From contig NC_010296.1 of NCBI RefSeq assembly GCF_000010625.1, positions 1,560,001-1,592,000 of the forward strand: 32,000 nt of DNA, read 5' to 3'. This document shows, piece by piece, positions 2,935 to 29,184 of the stretch. The position numbers and the translations under genes are program-made. This DNA is from Microcystis aeruginosa NIES-843. Its GTDB lineage: Bacteria; Cyanobacteriota; Cyanobacteriia; Cyanobacteriales; Microcystaceae. The number at the start of each line of letters is the position of its first letter. Position 1 is the first letter of the stretch. Below the pieces are notes generated by a model that was not told where the DNA came from, ran no database searches, and was given only the letters and a program-made list of their open reading frames with translations.

Positions 2935-2940
2935 TCATCA

Positions 2941-3050
2941 GGAGTCAGGAGTTGAGAGTTGGGGTTTTAGGGAGTTGGGGTTTTGGGGTATTAGTTGAAA
3001 TTACCCTATCTCCTCACTCCCCCATTTCCCCATTTCCCCACTCCCCACTT
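2941..3050. repeat. Composite intergenic repeat, copy A. Order: GGAGTCAGGAGT, telomere-like G-rich arm, AGTTGAAATT core, then C-rich CCCCATT/CCCCACT heptamers.
   Basis: Same architecture and near-identical core (ggggtattagttgaaatt) as the copies at 6901-7147 and 17898-17984. The G-tracts at 2961-2988 fit G3+N1-7 repeated four times. Confidence 0.8.
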
Positions 3051-6868: not shown

Positions 6869-6900
6869 GGTTTGCGGCAAAAAGTTTGTTGCTGGGGTTA

Positions 6901-7147
6901 GGAGTCGGTCGTCAGGATTCAGGATTCAGGAGTCTGGAGATAGGGTTTTAGGGTTTTAGGGTTTTAGGGTGTTGGGGTTTTAGTTGAAATTCCCCCAATA
7001 CCCCACTACTCCACTTCCCCATTTCCCAATTCATAATTCCCCCATTTCCCCACTTCCCCATTTCCCCACTTCCCCATCTCCCTACACCCCACACCCCACA
7101 CCCTACACCCTACACCCCACACCCTACACCCTCTTTCAAGTCAGGAG
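6901..7147. repeat. Composite intergenic repeat, copy B (the largest). Order: CAGGATT/CAGGAGT units, (GGGTTTTA)n G-rich arm, AGTTGAAATT core, long C-rich heptamer arrays (CCCCACT, CCCCATT, CCCCACA/CCCTACA), then CAGGAGT units.
   Basis: Read directly from the sequence. Five G-tracts at 6943-6977; C-rich arrays at 6991-7132. Lies between the convergent genes comM and 7148..8452. Confidence 0.85.
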
Positions 7148-8452
7148 TCAGGAATCGGGGGATTCTAAGCGTTTTTGCCATTCTCGATCGATTTTATCCG
7201 AGCGCTCGCTCTCTTGTTCGAGATAGTCTTGATCCGTAGAATAACTAATATCAGCATCCCTAATCACTTTTTGGTCGGCAAATTGACGAGAGTAGGCCAG
7301 TTTTTGCTCTAATTCAGGATTATTTTGGGCTAATAAATCTGCTCTTTTTTCTCGCTGTTGATTGCGTTGATTAACCCGCTTATTTCTCCACTGTAAAAAG
7401 AAATAACGACCGAGGGGAATCCCCAAAAAAGCAGCGGCATAACTGAGGAGAAAACCGTAGATACCTGTGACTATCGACCCCAGAGAACCGCTCAAATCAA
7501 CACTATCACTGTTGAGCAAAAATCCTAAAACTAAAGCGAGGATAAAGTTAACCACCCCTAAACCTAAAGCTAAGATAATTTGACCGCTATCCGCTTCGCT
7601 AAACTTCCAGCTTTTTTCCCTTAGATAGGGCGAAACTGTTTGTAATTTTCTCTCTTTGGTTGTCACCTGTAGATCGGGAAAATAATAGATAATATCGCCT
7701 CGATCGGACACTTGCGGCAATCCATTAAAGCGAGTTAAAACTGGGAGTATATAGTCTTCTGTTTCCTCCTGACTGGGGGTAATACTATCGAGATAGGGGA
7801 CAATTTGTGGAGCGATAATCGAGCCACGATTATTTTGAATTACTTTACCGATAGTTTGCCAGCGTCTCTCCTCTAAATTAAAATTAGGATCGCCATCGCC
7901 AAAAATAAAAGAAAAAACTGCCTCGAGAAAATTCATCTTACTAGGGGGTTTTTCTGCCTTAACTTCCCGATCTCTTCTTTCGTAGTAGTTATTACTAAAA
8001 TCGGGATAAAAAATCCAGAAAAAGTCCGTGGGAAAGAAGTTAATATTAATTTTGCTATCTCCAGAATTGTTATCCGAGTCACCATCTTTGAACATTAAGC
8101 CGATCAGGATCGCCAGAATAGCGAGCAACAGGATTAAAATCGAAATAATTAAAACAATGCCAAAGGAAATGCGAATAACATAAAAAACTACTTGCCAGAT
8201 TTTACTCCCGAAAGCTTTTAACTGCAATTGCCAATATTTATTCAGAAGAATTGAGCGAAAATTTTCAGGGAAAAGATAGATAATCTCCCCCGTATCTGCT
8301 ACCTGTAAATGTCCCCCCGCTTCCGCCGCTAAAGCTAATAATCCCTGTTGTGCAGCATTAATCTCTAAACCCGATTTTGCCGCCACATCACCCACCGTAA
8401 CCCGATAGCCTAATTTTTCGATCGATTGTAATAGAGACTCTTGGGGATTCAT
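7148..8452 (-). CDS. Hypothetical membrane protein with two related soluble modules and two hydrophobic segments
   Basis: 434-aa ORF. An internally repeated motif (...GEIIYLFPENF / ...GDIIYYFPDLQ) is each followed by a long hydrophobic stretch. I recognised no family. Confidence 0.7.
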   Translation of the reverse strand: MNPQESLLQSIEKLGYRVTVGDVAAKSGLEINAAQQGLLALAAEAGGHLQVADTGEIIYLFPENFRSILLNKYWQLQLKAFGSKIWQVVFYVIRISFGIVLIISILILLLAILAILIGLMFKDGDSDNNSGDSKININFFPTDFFWIFYPDFSNNYYERRDREVKAEKPPSKMNFLEAVFSFIFGDGDPNFNLEERRWQTIGKVIQNNRGSIIAPQIVPYLDSITPSQEETEDYILPVLTRFNGLPQVSDRGDIIYYFPDLQVTTKERKLQTVSPYLREKSWKFSEADSGQIILALGLGVVNFILALVLGFLLNSDSVDLSGSLGSIVTGIYGFLLSYAAAFLGIPLGRYFFLQWRNKRVNQRNQQREKRADLLAQNNPELEQKLAYSRQFADQKVIRDADISYSTDQDYLEQESERSDKIDREWQKRLESPDS

Positions 8453-11797: not shown

Positions 11798-11923
11798 GGG
11801 AAAAAGGAGTCAGGAGATAGGAGTCAGGAGCTTTTTGCTTTTATCAGTAAAAATCAAACAGTAATCCGTGAAAAGAAAGCTCTGAACTTGCCACTTAATA
11901 CTATTCACTGAAAACTAAAATAT

Positions 11924-11975
11924 GATAACTGATTACTGATTACTGATTACTGATTACTGATTACTGATCACTGAT
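11924..11975. repeat. Heptamer tandem array (GATTACT, about 7 copies)
   Basis: gataact gattact x5 gatcact read directly. It abuts the stop codon of the ABC-2 permease gene. CAGGAGT units lie at 11806-11832. Confidence 0.9.
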
Positions 11976-12764
11976 TCAATCCCGTTGATGGGAGAATTGA
12001 TAAGCACCGACAATCGAGAGAAGAAGAGCGACGATTAATAAAATAGGGATAGCGAACCAAGGAAATTGATTTATATCGTAGGCTGCGGCTCTTAATCCCA
12101 GACTAGCATAGGTGAGGGGTAAGGAATAAACAATAATTTTTAATGGCCAGGGTAAAGTTTGGGGGTCGAAAAAAGTTGCTCCTAAAAAAGACATCGGCAC
12201 GATTAAAAAGTTATTATACAGACTGACACTTTCGAGGGATTTAACTCGCAATCCGACAATTGCCCCTAAACCGGCAAAGACGGCACAATTTAAGATTAAA
12301 ACTAATAAAAAGAGGGGATTGAGAAAACTGACAAATTTTCCTGTAAATAAGATAGCAACGAGAATCACCGATGCAGAAGTCATTACACCGCGCAAAATCC
12401 CCGCAAAAACTTTGCCTAAAAATAATGAGAGGGGATGGACGGGAAGTAATAATAATTCCTCGAAGGTTTTACTAAATAAGCGATCGCCACATATCGAAAA
12501 GGTGGTTCCCCCGAAACTGATCGCCATTGAGGACAGGGCCACCATTCCGGGTAAAATAAATTCTAGATAAGAATCGCCGAGCGAGGGTTTCATCGAGCGA
12601 TCGAGGGCGCTTCCCAACCCCAACCCGAAACCGATAATATAGATTAGGGGAGAAACTAAACCTGTGGCGGCGATCTGAAGGACTCTCGCGCGTAAATCTA
12701 GCCATTCTCCCCAAAATACGGTTAAAGTGTCTGTTAATATCGTCTGAGCTTGAGCTAGTTTCAC
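11976..12764 (-). CDS. ABC-2 type transporter permease
   Basis: 262 aa with about 6 predicted TM segments and an ABC-2 (NodJ/YadH-like) layout. No ATPase partner is adjacent in this window. Confidence 0.75.
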   Translation of the reverse strand: MKLAQAQTILTDTLTVFWGEWLDLRARVLQIAATGLVSPLIYIIGFGLGLGSALDRSMKPSLGDSYLEFILPGMVALSSMAISFGGTTFSICGDRLFSKTFEELLLLPVHPLSLFLGKVFAGILRGVMTSASVILVAILFTGKFVSFLNPLFLLVLILNCAVFAGLGAIVGLRVKSLESVSLYNNFLIVPMSFLGATFFDPQTLPWPLKIIVYSLPLTYASLGLRAAAYDINQFPWFAIPILLIVALLLSIVGAYQFSHQRD

Positions 12765-13041: not shown

Positions 13042-15318
13042 ATGAAACCCTGTTACTGCATTAATCCCGATTGTTCTCAACCAGGGCATCCGAGTAATAA
13101 TAACTCGAATACTCGTTACTGTCAAAGTTGCGGCTCTCAATTGTTGTTAAATGGTAAATATAGGGTGAGTCGGTTATTGAGTGATACGACCGGTTTTGGC
13201 ATTGTTTATGAGGCTTTTGAAGGTTTTACAGCCAAAATCCTCAAGGTATTACAAGAAAAATGGAATAATCAACCGAAGGCAGTGGAATTATTTAAACGGG
13301 AATATGACGTTTTATTAGAGTTAAGTCGTCAAAATGTCACCGGTGTTCCTCGAGCGGATGCCTATTTTCAATATTCCACGAGAGAAGGGAAAATATTACA
13401 CTGTTTAGTTATGGAAAAAGTGGAGGGTATTAATTTAGAACAGTGGCTAAAGCAGTATGATAAATTAAGTCAAAAACGAGCCTTAAAATGGCTGAGAGAA
13501 ATTACTTTAATTCTCGATAAAATTCATCAACAGAATTGGATGCATCAAGATATTAAACCCCCTAATATTATGTTGCGGAATAGTGGCGAGTTGGTGTTAA
13601 TTGATTTTGGGACAGCAGGGACAGCAAGGGAAGAAACCCAAACCTATCATCAAAAGGGAAAAGGTCAACAGGTGACAGGTATTACCTCGGTCGGATATAC
13701 ACCCAATGAACAACAACATAGCCAGGCGGTGATTCAATCAGATTTTCATGCTTTAGGACGAACTTTTATGCATTTATTAACCGGAAAACATCCCTTAGAA
13801 ATTTATTATGATGCGTATAATGATGTTTTAGCTTGGCGAGAAGAAACGGAAAATATTCACCCGTTATTGTTGGATTTTATTGACGAGTTAATGGGAAGAT
13901 TACCCAAGAATAGACCGGCTAATACTAGGGTTATTTTACAGCGTTTGGATGAGATTGAACGGCAATTAAAGTTACCTCCTATAACTCCTATTATAACATC
14001 TCCACCACCACCAAATCCGCAGCCTGTTGTAAATCAAAAACAACCACAGGTTATTCCTAATATTAATCCTTCTCCGCCGGTTTCACCTGTGGCTGTACCC
14101 AAAAAAACACCAGCACAACCGGTTAAAAATAATAAGCTGAGAAATAGAATAATAGCTCTTGGTGGAGTTTTGTTATTAGGAATAGGAATAACGCAAGGTT
14201 ATGGTTATTTAAAATATAAAAGATTTCCGGTTACTCCTCAATTTTTAATCTCTGGTTTAGTTGATACTCCCTTTCTTTATAAGACCTTTACTGGTCATTC
14301 TGAGGCGGTTAACTCAGTAGCTTATAGTCCCGATGGACGGTTTTTGGCGAGTGTGAGTAATTACGATAGCATCAAAATTTGGGATATAGAAAATGGAAAA
14401 GAACCGCTTAATCTTGCTAATAATTCTAGCTTGATTAACTTAGTAGCCTATAATCCTTTAGCAGTAATAATCCTTGATGGTATAGTCTCTCCTCTTCCTC
14501 TTCAACAACAAGTAGAGCTTAATCTTAATAAAGTCTTGTCAGTAGCTTATAGTCCAGATGGACGCTATTTAGCCAGTGGGGGTGGGACATTATTGACTCA
14601 GGGGGAAGAACAGGGGGAAGAACAAAGTGTAGATATCATCAAAATTTGGGATATAGAAAGGAGAAAAGAATTGTTTCCCATTACTGTTAATTCTCGGCAT
14701 ATAGTTAACTCAGTAGCCTATAGTCCCGATGGCCGCTACTTAGCTAGTGGAAGTGCGGACAAAACTATCAAGATTTGGGATACAAAAACAGGAACAGAAT
14801 TGAGTACCCTCACTGGTCATTCTGAGGCGGTTAACTCAGTAGCTTATAGTCCAGATGGAAGGTATTTAGCGAGTGCGAGTAGTGACGAGACTATTAAAAT
14901 TTGGGATGTAAAAAATAACAAAGAATTAAATACCTTTATTTATAATTATTCAAAGACAATAACAGGTGTGGGCTATTTAATTAGAATAGCCTATAGTCCT
15001 AATGGACGATATTTAGCCAGTGGATATCTTAATGGAACTATCCAACTTTGGGATGTAAAAACAGGAAACAAAGTGCATACTCTTACTGGTCATTCTGGTT
15101 CGGTTATTCCATTAGCATATAGTCCCGATGGCCGCTATTTAGCTAGTGGGAGTAGTGACGGGACTATTAAAATTTGGGAGGTAGCAACGGGAAAAGAATT
15201 GCGTACCCTTACTGGTCATTCTGACACGGTTTGGTCAGTAGTATATAGTCCCGATGGCCGTTATTTAGCTAGTGGGAGTGGTGACAAAAATATAAAAATT
15301 TGGCGGGTGGGACAGTAA
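13042..15318 (+). CDS. Ser/Thr protein kinase with N-terminal Cys4 zinc-ribbon, Pro-rich linker, TM segment and C-terminal WD40 repeats
   Basis: CINPDCSQ...CQSCG; kinase motifs HQDIKPPNIM and LIDFGTA; a PPPPNPQP linker; repeated VNSVAYSPDGRYLASGS.D.TIKIWD blades. Confidence 0.92.
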   Translation: MKPCYCINPDCSQPGHPSNNNSNTRYCQSCGSQLLLNGKYRVSRLLSDTTGFGIVYEAFEGFTAKILKVLQEKWNNQPKAVELFKREYDVLLELSRQNVTGVPRADAYFQYSTREGKILHCLVMEKVEGINLEQWLKQYDKLSQKRALKWLREITLILDKIHQQNWMHQDIKPPNIMLRNSGELVLIDFGTAGTAREETQTYHQKGKGQQVTGITSVGYTPNEQQHSQAVIQSDFHALGRTFMHLLTGKHPLEIYYDAYNDVLAWREETENIHPLLLDFIDELMGRLPKNRPANTRVILQRLDEIERQLKLPPITPIITSPPPPNPQPVVNQKQPQVIPNINPSPPVSPVAVPKKTPAQPVKNNKLRNRIIALGGVLLLGIGITQGYGYLKYKRFPVTPQFLISGLVDTPFLYKTFTGHSEAVNSVAYSPDGRFLASVSNYDSIKIWDIENGKEPLNLANNSSLINLVAYNPLAVIILDGIVSPLPLQQQVELNLNKVLSVAYSPDGRYLASGGGTLLTQGEEQGEEQSVDIIKIWDIERRKELFPITVNSRHIVNSVAYSPDGRYLASGSADKTIKIWDTKTGTELSTLTGHSEAVNSVAYSPDGRYLASASSDETIKIWDVKNNKELNTFIYNYSKTITGVGYLIRIAYSPNGRYLASGYLNGTIQLWDVKTGNKVHTLTGHSGSVIPLAYSPDGRYLASGSSDGTIKIWEVATGKELRTLTGHSDTVWSVVYSPDGRYLASGSGDKNIKIWRVGQ

Positions 15319-16008: not shown

Positions 16009-16203
16009 ATGATGACTAACATTATCATTGATGACCAACTCATGGCTGATGCTCTTAAAGCTACTGGTTTAAAGACTAAACAAGAAGTTGTTGAATTGGG
16101 TCTTAAGACTTTGATTCGGCTCAAACAACAGGAGAAAATTAAAGCCTTTAAAGGTAAGCTTAAATGGGAAGGAAACCTTGAGGAAATGAGGCACAATCAA
16201 TGA
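16009..16203 (+). CDS. vapB: Type II antitoxin, VapB family
   Basis: MMTNIIIDDQLMADALKATGLKTKQEVVELGLKTLI... is typical of VapB/DUF2191-like antitoxins. Its stop overlaps the vapC start (ATGA). An internal ATG is preferred over the track start at 15970. Confidence 0.8.
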   Translation: MMTNIIIDDQLMADALKATGLKTKQEVVELGLKTLIRLKQQEKIKAFKGKLKWEGNLEEMRHNQ

Positions 16204-16571
16204 TTCTTGTGGATTCTAGTGTTTGGATTGATTTACTGCTGGGAGTTGAGCCGATAGCTATTGGTGATATTATTCTCACCGAAGTTCTCCAAGGTTTTAG
16301 GAGTGATAAGGATTATCAAATAGCCTATCGCTTACTAACTTCATTGACTATTTATGATTTACTAGGTTTGAGAATGGCATTGAAAAGCGCGGACAATTAT
16401 CGCCAGTTACGCAAGAAGGGGATAACTATTAGAAAAACTGCTGATGTTATTATTGCCTCCTTTTGTATTGAAAATAATCTTCCGCTCCTTTTTTCAGATA
16501 AAGATTTTATTCCTTTCGTGAAGCACTTAAAGCTAATTTCAGCTTGTCCTACTACTAATGATGAACGATGA
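16200..16571 (+). CDS. vapC: PIN-domain ribonuclease toxin VapC
   Basis: MILVDSSVWID... N-terminus with the first acidic PIN residue, and C-terminal ...LLFSDKDF. 4-nt overlap with vapB. Confidence 0.88.
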   Translation: MILVDSSVWIDLLLGVEPIAIGDIILTEVLQGFRSDKDYQIAYRLLTSLTIYDLLGLRMALKSADNYRQLRKKGITIRKTADVIIASFCIENNLPLLFSDKDFIPFVKHLKLISACPTTNDER

Positions 16572-17151: not shown

Positions 17152-17850
17152 TTAATTGGTTAAACCGTGTTTTAGGGCAAAACGTACCAATTCCGTGCGA
17201 CTATTAGTACCAGTCTTGCTAAATAAGCGACTGACGTATTTTTCTACGTTTCTGACACTGGTTTCTAGACGACTGGCAATTTCTTTATTCATCAATCCCT
17301 CCGCTACTAAATCTAAAACACTTTGTTCCCGGGGGGTAAGGTCAATTTTAATCGGGGGGGGAGTAGTAGTAAAAGTGTTCTGTTGTCCCACCTGCTGTTT
17401 TAATTCCCGGATATCTCGGGCAATTTCTTCTAATCTAGCGTTTTCGCTGGTGGCTTGCAGGGATTGACGACGGCGCTCGATTAAAGACTTGATTAATGCT
17501 TCTAATTCTTCGGGATCGAAAGGCTTGGATAAATAAGCATCACAACCGGCATTATAACCCTGAATGCGATCGCTCGTCATCCCCCTAGCAGTGAGAAAAA
17601 CCACGGGAATTGTCTGAAAACGAGCATCTTCGCGCAATTTCTTCAGAAACTGATAGCCATCCACCTGCGGCATCATAATGTCGGAGATGACTAATTCCGG
17701 AATTTCTTGATTGAGTAAATCCCAGGCTTCGTTAGCATTACTAGCAGTTCTTACCTCGAAGTCATCCCCGTACTGTAGATATGCTTGCACAGATTCACGA
17801 ACCCCCGGTTCGTCATCCACTAACAAAACTTTCGCAGGTGTGTCCATCAA
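17152..17850 (-). CDS. Two-component response regulator, NarL/FixJ (LuxR HTH) type
   Basis: Receiver domain (VLLVDDEP...SDIMMPQVDG...SKPF) followed by a LuxR-type HTH (LTPREQSVLDLVAEGLMNKEIASRLETSVRNVEKYVSRLFSK). Confidence 0.92.
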   Translation of the reverse strand: MMDTPAKVLLVDDEPGVRESVQAYLQYGDDFEVRTASNANEAWDLLNQEIPELVISDIMMPQVDGYQFLKKLREDARFQTIPVVFLTARGMTSDRIQGYNAGCDAYLSKPFDPEELEALIKSLIERRRQSLQATSENARLEEIARDIRELKQQVGQQNTFTTTPPPIKIDLTPREQSVLDLVAEGLMNKEIASRLETSVRNVEKYVSRLFSKTGTNSRTELVRFALKHGLTN

Positions 17851-17897: not shown

Positions 17898-17984
17898 GGA
17901 GATAGGAGTCAGTAGTCAGGAGTTGGGGTTTTAGGGTTTTGGGGTATTAGTTGAAATTCCCCTATCTCCCCATTCCCTACACCC
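17898..17984. repeat. Composite intergenic repeat, copy C (left part), interrupted by the group II intron
   Basis: ggagataggagtcagtagtcaggagt, then tggggttttagggttttggggtattagttgaaatt, then cccctatctccccattccctacaccc. The C-rich arm resumes at 18770. Confidence 0.8.
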
Positions 17985-18769
17985 GTTACAGTAGAGCAGG
18001 AAGTCGCCTTCCCACCCCCTGCTTCAAAACCGGACTTACGACTTTCGCCGTATCCGGCTCCTGAGTAACTAGGCTACTGTCATTAGTAGAATAATAATGG
18101 GAATTATTATTTCCTTGTCTATTCAACCCTCTTGGCTGTATCCCCACCAGACAAGATTGTTGGTTTTAGGGCGTATATGACCGTTGATTGTTGCTTAGAC
18201 TTCCTAGTTACCCGTCCTTTGTCAGCATATCTTTGATATTACTCAAAGCCTTGGCTTTTAAGGACATCCTCTCCCTCTATTGACTTGCGGATGGTTTCCT
18301 ACTGCCCCGAACGGGCAGAGTCAATCAGGGTTACTTCGTTCCCTATAACCATTGGTTGAACCCTTAGGATGATACTGTCCACAACAGAGTAACGGGAATG
18401 CCTTACTGATAGTGGTATGAGCTATCAGCCCCAACTCTGTTAACTTTTGTTTCGAGCCTGTCAGCCTTTTGGCTCGTGGGTGTTGACGATGGTTAATTCG
18501 TATCTTCGCCCCAGGGCTATCCATAGGTTCTGGCTCAACGGGTTTCTGATTTAGGCTATCAGATACCGCTTTTTTTTCCTCGCTCACTACCTCAGATGTA
18601 CCAAGTCTAAAGCAGCAGGAAATGCCGTCACTCTAGGCATCTAGAGGACAGGACTAAGGTTATTACTAACCCGCACCTGTAGGGTTATAAAGTTATCAAG
18701 GTACTACATTTACCAAGCGGCTAATCCTCTAAACGTCTTACTGTCTAGTTTCTAGCCAACGAATCGCAC
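17985..18769 (-). mobile_element. ORF-less group II intron (about 785 nt)
   Basis: The minus-sense sequence starts GTGCG (18769..18765) and ends ...CTGCTCTACTGTAAC. Canonical 34-nt domain V: GAGCCGGATACGGC-GAAA-GTCGTAAGTCCGGTTT, with the AGC triad, a GNRA loop and a 2-nt bulge. It is followed by a domain VI hairpin whose candidate branch A sits 7 nt before the 3' end. Domain IV is reduced to a short hairpin (aataataat-tccc-attattatt). No RT ORF. Confidence 0.8.
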
Positions 18770-18814
18770 CACACCCCACACCCTACACCCCACTTCCCCA
18801 CTTCCCCACTTCCC
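18770..18814. repeat. C-rich heptamer array (CCCCACA / CCCCACT), right part of composite repeat copy C
   Basis: cacaccccacaccctacaccccacttccccacttccccacttccc read directly. Confidence 0.8.
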
Positions 18815-18923
18815 AGATCATCCTCAAGATAGTGACGGTGAGTTAAACTAGCAGATAGAACTAAAAAGTTACAAAAATCACCTAGATTATTTTAGAATCC
18901 TTTCACCATTCTTAACAAATCCC

Positions 18924-21080
18924 GTGACCATTCTCTGCTGGCTCGATCGCATTAGTGCTTCTGATCGCCCCCTGGTGGGGGAAAAAGCTTTTATTGCCAG
19001 TGAATTACACCAGGGAGGATACCCAATTATCGGGGGATTTGCCATTTTTAACCGCATTTTTGCGGAATTTTTGGAAACTATCAACAATGCTGACTCTTTC
19101 TTGACTGATTTTCCGCAATCTTCCCTCTATTTAGACGTAGATAACGCAAAAGCTCTGCAATTAGTCGCCAAAGAAAGTCGGCGCGCCATTTTACAAGCGC
19201 AAATTCCTCCTCTCTGGTTAGAAGAACTAGCGGCGGCCGTGGCACAATTATCCATGGATACCCTAGTATGGCGCTTTTCCCTACCAGCTAATCTGGCTCG
19301 GCGAACGCTCGGTTTATTTTCCGCCCCAATCAGTGGAATTAAAGCAGATAATCTAGAAAATGCCCTAAAACAAGCTTGGGCGGAGTTATTCAACGCCAAA
19401 AGTCTATTTTATTGGCGAAAAATGGGAATTGGTTTAGAAAAAATTCAATTATCTTTACTGGTACAACCGTTATTACCGGCCAATTGTGCGGGAAATGTGT
19501 TGATTAATGACGATAACTGGAAAATTCAGGCAGTTTGGGGGTTAGGACACAGTTTAGTTAATGGAGAAGTGGCACCGGATACCTATATTATTGATCGCTC
19601 CGGTCAATTACGCAGTCGGCAATTAGGCAATAAATCCCGCGCTTATTATCTCAATAGTGACAGTAATCTGCTCGCGCCACAATTATTAGCACCCAGTTTA
19701 CAGGAAAGCTACTGTTTAGATAATTTCGCCCTCGATCGCCTTTGTCAACTGGTTCAATCTCTACTGACGGAAAAACCGACGTTAACCAGCATAGAATGGC
19801 TGATGATGCTGGATGGTCAAATTTATATTCTTAACTGTCACAGTCAGGAAATCACCGCTACTACCTGCCATTATCCCTTAAGAGGATTAGGGGCATCCCC
19901 GGGGTTGGCATCGGGAGTGGCAAAAGTGATCAGCAATTTCGACTCCCCAGAGGCAAATTTTCAGGATTGCATTCTGGTTACTACTAATTTACCTCCGAAA
20001 AAACTGCCCCATTTACGCCAAATTCGAGCAATGATCACGGAACAGGGGGGATTAACTAGCCATGGAGCCATTTTAGCCCGGGAATTAGCCATTCCTGCCG
20101 TTGTCGGGGTGAAAAATGCCACGGAAATTATCCGCTCAGGGGAGATAATTTTAGTAGATGGTACGAGGGGAATTATTTCTCTAGCATCTCAGGAACAGAT
20201 TTCCTTACCCTCAGCACCCCCCAGAGAAACCGACGGGACGGCAATTGCTACCCGTTTGATGGTTAATCTCAGTCAAACTGAAAGTATTGCCGGAATCCAA
20301 GAGCTGCCTATTGATGGGATTGGTTTATTGCGCTCAGAATGGATGATTTTAGAGTTACTTTCTCAGCGTAATCTAGAAGAATGGTTAACACCAGAGCATC
20401 AAGAAGCATTGATCGAGAGATTAAGTGATTTAATCGCACAATTTGCCCTTAGTATCCAGCCTAAGCCTTTATTTTATCGTTCTTTTGATGCTCAACATTC
20501 GACTAAAGACAGTCGGGGAACCCATGGTTATATATTAGATCCGACTCTATTCGATCTGGAATTGCAAGCTTTACGACGGGTACAAACCACCAGCGCCACC
20601 AATATTAATTTACTGCTTCCCTTTGTCCGCGGGGTTGAGGAATTTATTTTCTGCCGGCAACGGGTACAATCGGCTTTACTCACTCAAGTCCCTTCTTTCC
20701 AATTGGGGATAATGGTGGAAGTACCGGGAGTAATCTTTCAATTGGGGGATTATGTGCAAGCGGGGGTACAATTAATCGCTATTGGTACTAATGATTTAAC
20801 TCAATTACTTTTAGGTAGCGATCGAGAACATTTCTCAGAATATTTTAACGCCCGTCATCCCGCAGTCAGGGCAGCTTTAAAACAAATTATCACTCAAGCA
20901 AAAGTTTTACAGATTCCCTGTTCCGTTTGCGGCATGGCCATCGTCCAGTATCCTGAAATTATCGATGATTTGATTGCTTGGGGTGTGACTTCTCTTTCGG
21001 TGGATACAGAAGCAGTTTTAGCCACTAGAGAGGCAATTGTTCGCGCCGAAAGAAGATTTTTATTGGAAAATAGCAGATAA
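18924..21080 (+). CDS. PEP-utilising enzyme, phosphoenolpyruvate synthase (PpsA)-like, with all three modules
   Basis: N-terminal PPDK_N-like region (DRPLVGEKAF...GGFAI), swivel phosphohistidine domain (TEQGGLTSHGAILARELAIPAVVG) and C-terminal PEP-binding TIM barrel (IGTNDLTQLLLGSDRE...CSVCGMA). GTG start. Confidence 0.85.
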   Translation: MTILCWLDRISASDRPLVGEKAFIASELHQGGYPIIGGFAIFNRIFAEFLETINNADSFLTDFPQSSLYLDVDNAKALQLVAKESRRAILQAQIPPLWLEELAAAVAQLSMDTLVWRFSLPANLARRTLGLFSAPISGIKADNLENALKQAWAELFNAKSLFYWRKMGIGLEKIQLSLLVQPLLPANCAGNVLINDDNWKIQAVWGLGHSLVNGEVAPDTYIIDRSGQLRSRQLGNKSRAYYLNSDSNLLAPQLLAPSLQESYCLDNFALDRLCQLVQSLLTEKPTLTSIEWLMMLDGQIYILNCHSQEITATTCHYPLRGLGASPGLASGVAKVISNFDSPEANFQDCILVTTNLPPKKLPHLRQIRAMITEQGGLTSHGAILARELAIPAVVGVKNATEIIRSGEIILVDGTRGIISLASQEQISLPSAPPRETDGTAIATRLMVNLSQTESIAGIQELPIDGIGLLRSEWMILELLSQRNLEEWLTPEHQEALIERLSDLIAQFALSIQPKPLFYRSFDAQHSTKDSRGTHGYILDPTLFDLELQALRRVQTTSATNINLLLPFVRGVEEFIFCRQRVQSALLTQVPSFQLGIMVEVPGVIFQLGDYVQAGVQLIAIGTNDLTQLLLGSDREHFSEYFNARHPAVRAALKQIITQAKVLQIPCSVCGMAIVQYPEIIDDLIAWGVTSLSVDTEAVLATREAIVRAERRFLLENSR

Positions 21081-21149
21081 CTTCCCCACTACCTCACTAC
21101 CCCACTACCCCATCAACCCACTTCCCCACTACCCCACTACCCCACTTCC
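21081..21149. repeat. C-rich heptamer array (CCCCACT/ACCCCAC variants)
   Basis: cttccccactacctcactaccccactaccccatcaacccacttccccactaccccactaccccacttcc begins immediately after the stop codon at 21080. Confidence 0.85.
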
Positions 21150-21498
21150 TAATTCATACTTTGTGCTTTTTGTCAAAAAAACTTTTTTTTTGCAATAAAA
21201 CTACACAAAAAAAAGATCATCGTTGTGGGTGAAATTGACTCATTTACCTGTCTTAATGAGGATTACCTTCTAGGTGTGGCAAGGGTTTCAACCGTTGCTG
21301 CCCAAAAAAGCATAGAGTACCCCACTATGAAATTCAGTAAAATCGCTGTAACCATTGTAACATCGTTGTTAAATAAAAATCTTTCTCAATTAATTCTTAA
21401 GAATTTGTAAATATTGCGAAATGTTAATTTAAATATTCTCAAGTTTTTGGAGTTCATAGATAATTTTTGCTTATCTTTGACCAACATTGGGTTAGAAG

Positions 21499-21541
21499 TC
21501 AGTTATCAGTTATCAGTTATCAGTTATCAGTTATCAGTTAA
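21499..21541. repeat. Heptamer tandem array (CAGTTAT, about 5.5 copies)
   Basis: Read directly from the sequence. Confidence 0.9.
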
Positions 21542-21552
21542 CTGAGAAAACT

Positions 21553-21647
21553 CCCCACACCCTACATCCCACACCCCACACCCCACACCCCACACCCCAC
21601 ACCCCACACCCCACACCCCACACCCCACACCCTACACCCCACACCCT
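21553..21647. repeat. Heptamer tandem array (CCCCACA, about 13 copies; GGGGTGT on the minus strand)
   Basis: Read directly. It ends 13 nt from the stop codon of the minus-strand gene 21660..24410. Confidence 0.92.
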
Positions 21648-29022: not shown

Positions 29023-29065
29023 AGAAAAGCTTCGATCGTAAATTTTCCCTTTTTTATCTTATAAC

Positions 29066-29184
29066 AGTGATCAGTCATCAGTAATCAGTAATCAGTGAAA
29101 AGACAGCACTGTTACGGCCATTTAATACTGCTCAGTTAATACCACTCACTTAAAACTCACATCTGATTACTGTTTACTGACAAC
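29066..29184. repeat. Inverted pair of heptamer arrays (CAGTNAT x5 at 29066-29098; CTGNTTA x3 at 29164-29184)
   Basis: cagtgat cagtcat cagtaat cagtaat cagtgaa ... ctgatta ctgttta ctgacaa, in opposite orientation and separated by about 65 nt. Confidence 0.75.

Follow-up and report, generated by a model that had tools for sequence, protein, structure and literature searches.

The 32,000-nucleotide (nt) stretch of the Microcystis aeruginosa NIES-843 genome analyzed here (contig NC_010296.1, positions 1,560,001 to 1,592,000; hereafter the window) contains a complete 785-nt group II intron that lacks a reverse transcriptase (RT) gene and interrupts a tandem array of heptamer repeats at window positions 17985-18769 on the minus strand. 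We consider it highly probable that this element is an intact-looking, non-autonomous intron of subgroup IIB and, putatively, of the cyanobacterial chloroplast-like (CL) lineage, which is present in multiple copies in Microcystis-type genomes, has moved recently and is mobilized in trans to heptamer arrays. In-silico excision of 17985-18769 joins ...GGGTGTAGGGTGTGGGGTGTG to GGGTGTAGGG... as an uninterrupted heptamer array, such that an earlier note on this DNA, which held from the sequence alone that removing the element restores a continuous array and that the insertion site is a repeat, proved right. On the minus strand the element starts with GTGCG at 18769 (18769-18765) and ends with ...CUGUAAC at 17985 (the terminal AC being 17986-17985), in line with the boundary consensus of 5' GUGYG and 3' AY. 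These boundaries are backed by an Rfam match and by 785/785-nt identical copies at six other loci, and the same ends are seen in every full copy. The 5' exon part of the array lies at 18770-18814 (-), with GGGGAAGT units upstream, and the 3' exon part (GGGTGTAGGGAATGGGGAGATAGGGG...) at 17951-17984 (-).

When contigs from a one-genome-per-species collection were searched with a domain V pattern, nine contig ends of the metagenome-assembled genome (MAG) Microcystis aeruginosa Ma_QC_C_20070703_M131 matched; there the final 102-117 nt of the intron are present with 100% identity and then give way to a different flank at each end. Apart from this MAG, the scan matched only an unrelated Pelosinus intron. 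Seven assembled contigs with complete copies were fetched through an 88-amino-acid (aa) open reading frame (ORF) inside the element, which served solely as an exact-match handle, and six of these (loci L020-L025) were 100% identical over 785 nt while one (L026) was 99.7% identical. Scanning metagenomes with the 5' 26-mer of the intron added copies L029 (99.7%) and L033 (98.6%), two further copies interrupted by insertion sequences (IS), and additional 5' junctions. The element is thus one member of a multi-copy, near-identical ORF-less family whose members sit at different sites that share the same intron-binding site (IBS) motifs, and in every copy the shared sequence runs up to exactly the GUGCG and AC ends.

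Evaluating the junctions of these copies, which are 98.6-100% identical, we were left after deduplication with 13 different flanks on the 5' side and 14 on the 3' side; the two sides were counted separately because pairing in metagenome contigs is unreliable (one 3' flank was seen with four 5' flanks). Every copy occupied a single register of the seven possible, TA-GGGTGT-R-GGGTGT-R/GG, where the slash marks an insertion point that follows the variable R and precedes the GGG of a heptamer unit; the target site can be written TAGGGTGTRGGGTGTR/GG. Positions -14 to -9 and -7 to -2 were GGGTGT in 13 of 13 5' flanks, positions -8 and -1 were G in 10 and A in 3, and positions +1 and +2 were G in all 14 3' flanks. 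Outside the part of the target that is paired by the intron's exon-binding sites (EBS), A at -15 and T at -16 were each present in 12 of 13 flanks, whereas the equivalent repeat positions -8 and -1 were mostly G. This T-16/A-15 pair (window 18784-18785) may be a protein contact.

The EBS assignments account for this register. EBS2 (ACACCC, nt 287-292, window 18478-18483, -) pairs with IBS2 (GGGUGU, exon -14 to -9, window 18778-18783), EBS1 (CAUACC, nt 351-356, window 18414-18419, -), which is part of the 9-nt loop that caps hairpin 342-364, pairs with IBS1 (GGUGUG, exon -6 to -1, window 18770-18775), and EBS3 (C393, window 18377, -) pairs with the first 3'-exon nucleotide, the G at window 17984 (IBS3). 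Opposite EBS2, EBS1 and EBS3 lie precisely the positions that stay constant among the copies. Four relatives at other loci likewise pair the EBS1 loop with their own 5' exon (L040 CAAGCA/UGCUUG, L028 GUCGCC/GGCGAC, L009 CCGCAA/UUGUGG and L006 UUCUG/CAGAA), and the segment homologous to EBS2 pairs with the exon in L009 (AUAUCU/AGAUAU) and L006 (GCAUA/UAUGC). At EBS3 the column reads C, U, U, C, G in the Microcystis element, L040, L039, L006 and L028, against 3'-exon starts of G, A, A, G, C, which is Watson-Crick in 5 of 5. The covariation of EBS1 and EBS3 with the exons thus comes from relatives at unrelated targets. Taken with the 13 5' and 14 3' junctions in one register, these complementarities strongly support, at the sequence level, the heptamer arrays as homing sites of the intron, a role that the earlier note had offered as a possibility.

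Could these copies instead be dead relics that spread passively, through duplication or recombination of the arrays or through transposition of a larger repeat element? Many GGGGTGT arrays are followed by a diverged repeat element starting GGGTTTTACCGATTTTSAGG..., which has exact matches in six loci (L015, L017, L019, L023, L030 and L033; for example L023:3238-3257) and is not found in the window; half of the distinct 3' flanks (7 of 14) lead into this element. In addition, a related 430-560-nt intergenic segment adjoins arrays at several loci with 86-87% identity, and no helper RT was found, all of which would suit passive spread. Yet the intron copies are 98.6-100% identical while the neighboring repeats vary considerably from site to site, anywhere from 0 to 2 heptamer units separate the intron from the GGGTTTTACCGATTTTSAGG element, the shared sequence stops exactly at the intron ends, the register matching EBS1, EBS2 and EBS3 is constant, and the catalytic motifs are all intact. 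Neither extended identical flanks shared between copies beyond the intron nor a lack of EBS/IBS complementarity was seen. Because the flanks have diverged while the intron has remained constant, we read the copies as independent insertions rather than as co-duplications with their flanks, and regard the relic explanation as very improbable.

The flanking repeats drew some observations of their own. The 430-560-nt segment recurs at window 21083-21642, L029:4259-4809 and L030:11989-12416 and represents a larger dispersed repeat family. Besides the GGGTTTTACCGATTTTSAGG element behind many arrays, another recurrent motif (...CTGAAAAAG.TTT...GGGGC.A) lies in front of several of them, and the arrays may be internal to a unit resembling a miniature inverted-repeat transposable element. 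Of the two broken intron copies, one (L030:12471-14652) carries an ISL3-family transposase gene after intron nt 140, and the other (L032:3296-4670) carries a 1145-bp DDE_3 (IS630-like) element at nt 113-115 with a 3-bp duplication, its similarity stopping again after nt 228; near the latter, on a Microcystis-type contig, lies a Cyano-1 RNA (L032:5190-5263; RF01701, 52 bits vs a cut-off of 41). Contig L022 (1-1122) matches the window (18791 onward) only from 21 nt upstream of the intron. Among L022, L024, L025, L026 and L029, one 3' flank recurs behind 5' flanks that differ from contig to contig, which reflects either intron copies or arrays acting as recombination breakpoints or assembler jumps between 785-nt repeat copies.

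Turning to the ribozyme itself, the cmscan match of RF00029 (group II domains V-VI) to 17985-18062 (-) scored 55 bits (gathering score, 40; E 2e-8), spanned the full model (1-77), terminated exactly at the proposed 3' splice site, and was the sole Rfam match above the gathering score in the whole window. The GTGCG start and textbook domain V described in the earlier note were both confirmed. Domain V (nt 710-743, window 18027-18060, -) is a 34-nt hairpin, GAGCCGGAUACGGC-GAAA-GUCGUAAGUCCGGUUU, with the AGC triad, a 2-nt bulge and a GAAA (GNRA) loop, and is followed by domain VI (nt 748-782, window 17988-18022, -), in which A778 (window 17992) is bulged in both the minimum free energy (MFE) and the centroid folds, 7 nt from the 3' end, in support of the unpaired A that the note had described, and is the predicted branch point. 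A permissive Rfam scan added only sub-threshold matches, to the plastid ndhA/ndhB domain V model (41.7 vs a cut-off of 61) and, partially and over intron nt 147-214, to RF01999 D1-D4-2 (26.7 bits, below the cut-off of 36), such that the Infernal check proposed earlier passes for domains V-VI and is only partial for D1-D4-2. Relative to 20 dinucleotide-preserving shuffles, the fold of the whole RNA had a z-score of -5.1.

Domain I (nt 1-437, window 18333-18769, -) is closed by UUCGUU (nt 7-12) with AACGAA (nt 430-435) in an RNAalifold consensus of six introns. The conserved domain I segment that had been pointed out beforehand corresponds to GGGAACGAA (nt 427-435), whose AACGAA part forms the 3' strand of this closing helix, and the AACGAA/UUCGUU pairing is invariant among the six related introns. 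Domain II (nt 440-497, window 18273-18330, -) was placed by the MFE and centroid folds together with consensus pairs, and domain III (nt 505-556, window 18214-18265, -) by folds and consensus pairs. Domain IV (nt 557-707, about 151 nt, window 18063-18213, -) has no ORF and, in the MFE and centroid folds, consists of an 11-bp basal stem, an 85-nt arm, an AT hairpin (659-680) and a small hairpin; its 5' strand aligns with the pre-ORF portion of domain IV in related introns. The earlier description of this domain as just a short AT hairpin without an RT was therefore correct about the RT and too simple about the structure, as further stems are present. Overall, domains V-VI pass the covariance cut-off and domains I-III are homologous to, and covary with, those of RT-encoding introns, which supports identification of the element as a group II intron.

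The absence of an RT was also seen from the coding side. Six ORFs of at least 30 aa overlap the element (31-88 aa), and none of them has a Pfam match. As already noted from the sequence, the 88-aa ORF (18321-18587) lies in domain I and shows no RT motifs; it matches no Pfam family and spans domain I helices, by which we ruled it out as a gene. A blastx comparison of the element with four related intron RTs gave nothing significant except a frame reading through domain V. A domain IV frame at intron nt 582-626 (window 18144-18188, -) reads INGHIRPKTNNLVWW and resembles aa 478-494 of three related RTs (VKGESSPYNGNLVYW); this 15-aa resemblance is not significant (E about 1-2 for the two closest RTs and 10 for L006), and the stretch may be a leftover of a lost ORF. 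The data support an ORF-less element, without the RT/maturase ORF in domain IV that marks autonomous mobility, and such an intron would presumably need a trans-acting protein.

RT-encoding relatives of the element were recovered from other cyanobacteria. Comparison with plasmids by blastn gave weak matches in Nostocales and Crinalium plasmids, limited to the 5' end, nt ~387-442 and domain V; these include a 2427-nt intron with an annotated RT on a Fremyella diplosiphon plasmid (NIES-3275, L006) and an Aphanizomenonaceae plasmid intron carrying ltrA (TIOX110, L028), whose proteins both contain RVT_N, RVT_1, GIIM and HNH domains (Pfam). The metagenome scan added L039, from an Oculatellaceae MAG, and L040, which encode proteins with these four domains too. 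Aligning the 5' 570 nt of six introns revealed an invariant GUGCGAUUCGUU and an invariant GGAACGAAGUAA, with no change in the first 12 nt of the introns or in the AACGAA closing strand, and the RNAalifold consensus over this part contained 127 pairs, 66 of them with compensatory changes. Identity over the first 442 nt was about 64% with L006, the sole relative measured there. Compared with the Microcystis element, these CL IIB introns of filamentous cyanobacteria (L006 and L028) have the same 5' GUGCGAUUCGUU and AACGAA closing strand, the same domain I architecture with the same EBS1 hairpin and EBS3 positions, and similar domains V and VI; they differ in carrying a 567-607-aa RVT_N/RVT_1/GIIM/HNH protein in domain IV and in occupying unrelated, non-repeat targets. 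In a degenerate 1129-nt relative on plasmid pn1 of Nostoc sp. UHCC 0926 (L007:3501-4629), the first 200 nt, domains V-VI and pieces of the RT ORF survive, but domain I is largely gone; this is an intron in decay and not a functional ORF-less one.

With regard to class, IIA introns have delta adjacent to EBS1 instead of a separate EBS3. In the Microcystis element EBS3 lies in a domain I loop separate from EBS1, an arrangement that indicates subgroup IIB. A placement in the CL lineage is putative: the element itself has no intron-encoded protein (IEP), its nearest RNA relatives encode RVT_N/RVT_1/GIIM/HNH proteins, and its domain V resembles the plastid ndhA/ndhB model at a score below the cut-off.

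Combining these features, we propose that the array is transcribed on its G-rich strand, whereupon the intron would fold into a six-domain ribozyme and, with an RT/maturase that an RT-encoding intron of that cell would provide in trans, would splice as a lariat to give ligated exons GGGGUGUG-GGGUGUAG. The resulting ribonucleoprotein would then reverse-splice into DNA wherever EBS2 (ACACCC), EBS1 (CAUACC) and EBS3 (C) meet GGGTGT-R-GGGTGT-R/G, that is, two consecutive GGGGTGT/AGGGTGT heptamer units, and the helper would copy the inserted RNA into complementary DNA, which would make retrohoming the presumed means of spread. As such an intergenic microsatellite target recurs in many arrays, each genome would offer many harmless sites.

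Several results weigh against mobilization of this kind. The two other arrays in the window, on the same strand as the occupied one, hold 15 core matches to GGGTGTRGGGTGTRGGG, 4 of them in the extended TA-form, where none is expected by chance: an array at 7080-7131 (-) has 6 matches, 3 of these extended, and a 13-unit GGGGTGT array at 21553-21646 (-) has 9 core matches, 1 of these extended. All 15 core targets are empty, which means that the targets are far from saturated and that mobility is either infrequent or requires more than the sequence seen. The A at -1 in 3 of 13 5' flanks is mismatched to C351. Neither was an orthologous occupied/empty pair found at any locus, as short-read contigs of both flanking genes end inside arrays, and BLAST of all fetched loci against the window returned only paralogous segments of 86-87% identity and no empty allele. 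A promoter scan upstream of the intron was at chance level (3 found vs 2.0 expected). Lastly, no Microcystis helper emerged. Every match of the metagenome scan with the 5' 26-mer was an ORF-less copy, an IS-disrupted copy or a distant RT-encoding relative whose 5' end is only 78-85% identical over the first 52-96 nt; the best 120 homologues of the nearest RT (L039) were all from filamentous cyanobacteria and none from Microcystis; and tblastn of the related RTs against the window and the fetched loci found no Microcystis RT.

Further searches for a helper were negative as well. With tblastn against plasmids no Microcystis record was among the best rows, two pattern scans of viral contigs gave only an unrelated intron (L041) whose RT is about 25-37% identical. 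Nor was carriage by phages indicated, as a phage collection contained no match. The multi-copy matches P0090 and P0042 were rejected as parents, their introns being just 57-61% identical. Of the searches that the earlier note had recommended, those for other ORF-less copies in arrays and for RT-encoding introns succeeded, the latter in other cyanobacteria, while no RT-encoding Microcystis copy was recovered; its recommended EBS/IBS analysis led to the EBS1, EBS2 and EBS3 assignments above. According to PMC8934634, M. aeruginosa NIES-843 carries seven group II intron RTs, which makes the existence of helpers in the genus plausible.

These searches bear on whether the intron owes its mobility to something other than a closely related IEP, perhaps a relaxed-specificity driver RT of another intron family or a free-standing maturase/RT. 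Candidates would include the HNH-bearing RTs reported in M. aeruginosa NIES-843, and relaxed specificity has been documented for driver IEPs (PMC2882425). The searches yielded no RT-encoding intron whose ends are near-identical, even though the 26-mer is common to several RT-encoding relatives, and the domain V pattern matched one Microcystis genome only, albeit in a one-genome-per-species collection. Against this, the searches amounted to one exact-pattern scan per collection, short-read MAGs often miss repeated RT introns, and the alignment of the domain IV 5' strand with the pre-ORF part of the relatives fits a protein of the cognate type. We judge a helper of this kind improbable, though somewhat less so than passive spread of a relic.

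The genomic setting of the intron was weighed for a local function. The window is of Microcystis type, given the identity of the copies and of the response-regulator locus beside the intron to Microcystis-rich assemblies and to the M131 MAG. The intron lies between a gene for a phosphoenolpyruvate (PEP)-utilising enzyme (18924-21080, +) and a response-regulator gene (17152-17847, -) that has the same orientation and starts 138 nt downstream of the intron. This co-orientation, together with a weak promoter-like site upstream at 18889-18918 (-), might suggest that the intron has been domesticated in the 5' leader of the response-regulator gene, where its splicing would control expression. The chance-level promoter count speaks against such a role, as do the other copies, which lie downstream of, or antisense to, unrelated genes, and we find domestication scarcely credible. 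With copies beside unrelated genes, where the intron lies depends on the arrays and not on gene class.

Elsewhere in the window, composite intergenic arrays were present at 2938-3049, 6900-7153, 17904-18814 and 21080-21646, made up of 7-8-nt units (AGGAGTC, GGGTTTTA/TAGGGTTT, CCCCACTT, CCCCACA/CCCTACA and ACTACCCC) with the G-rich strand being the minus strand throughout the window. Six exact TCAGTTA units at 21499-21540 are the reverse complement of TAACTGA, a heptamer described from intergenic repeats in some cyanobacteria, M. aeruginosa NIES-843 among them, and in Beggiatoaceae (PMC4679880), and related arrays consist of TGATTAC (11923-11976) and CAGTAAT (29065-29096). The window also holds a protein kinase-WD40 repeat gene (13042-15318) with a 126-bp tandem repeat (14987-15303), and PIN and DUF433 toxin-antitoxin-like genes at 16200-16571 and nearby.

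As to known systems, it is already established that ORF-less group II introns exist, that they are mobilized in trans, and that homing can be directed at repeated or mobile DNA; the Microcystis element is a new family of such introns. One close likeness is to the TeI3 families of Thermosynechococcus elongatus, where identical ORF-less introns are mobilized by driver IEPs (Mohr, Ghanem & Lambowitz 2010, PMC2882425) and which are likewise cyanobacterial IIB introns that have lost the RT ORF and exist in multiple identical copies. Those introns target the RT ORF of other introns, an IS200-type element and assorted intergenic sites, whereas the Microcystis element targets a tandem heptamer with IBS1 and IBS2 in two successive units; the T. 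elongatus drivers are known, whereas none was found here; and the Microcystis host is mesophilic. The ORF-less introns and twintron of Trichodesmium erythraeum (PMC4649490) also form an ORF-less family in a repeat-rich, bloom-forming cyanobacterium, and no link of theirs to heptamer arrays was found in the literature searched. That literature likewise contained no description of the Microcystis element or of a heptamer-array target. What looks new against it is a heptamer microsatellite target that is read twice, by EBS2 and by EBS1, and a family that is abundant and essentially invariant in Microcystis populations.

Specialization on repeated DNA motifs is also a trait of other group II introns: IIC introns insert at terminator stem-loops or at attC sites, and RmInt1 inserts in ISRm2011-2. 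They share with the Microcystis element the strategy of homing to a motif that recurs in harmless places, whereas their motifs are structured elements or a single site in an IS, and the Microcystis target is a microsatellite-like array offering several overlapping sites per array. The class differs as well, the Microcystis element being assigned to IIB and not IIC.

A bolder interpretation is that the intron family is an obligate microsatellite parasite, with EBS1 and EBS2 having evolved to read successive heptamer units, with no cognate RT parent in the population and a heterologous RT driving it, with T-16/A-15 as the contact of that foreign protein, and with the copies serving as portable homology for the rearrangements typical of Microcystis genomes. 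We regard this as speculative and on the doubtful side; if true, the intergenic GGGGTGT arrays of Microcystis would be a genome-wide landing pad.

For an intron mobilized in trans to arrays, the mechanism is the established one and leaves the understanding of group II introns unchanged. The family nonetheless provides a natural example of ORF-less intron proliferation in a mesophile, with a target short enough for direct tests of EBS/IBS rules, and it is a possible repeat-targeting tool if the helper is identified. For Microcystis genome plasticity and assembly, a 785-bp repeat at no fewer than nine sites in one MAG, where it sits at contig ends, may mediate rearrangements. More broadly, the element ties the unexplained intergenic heptamer arrays of cyanobacteria to a mobile element, such that a simple repeat would serve as a multi-copy safe harbor for a retroelement.

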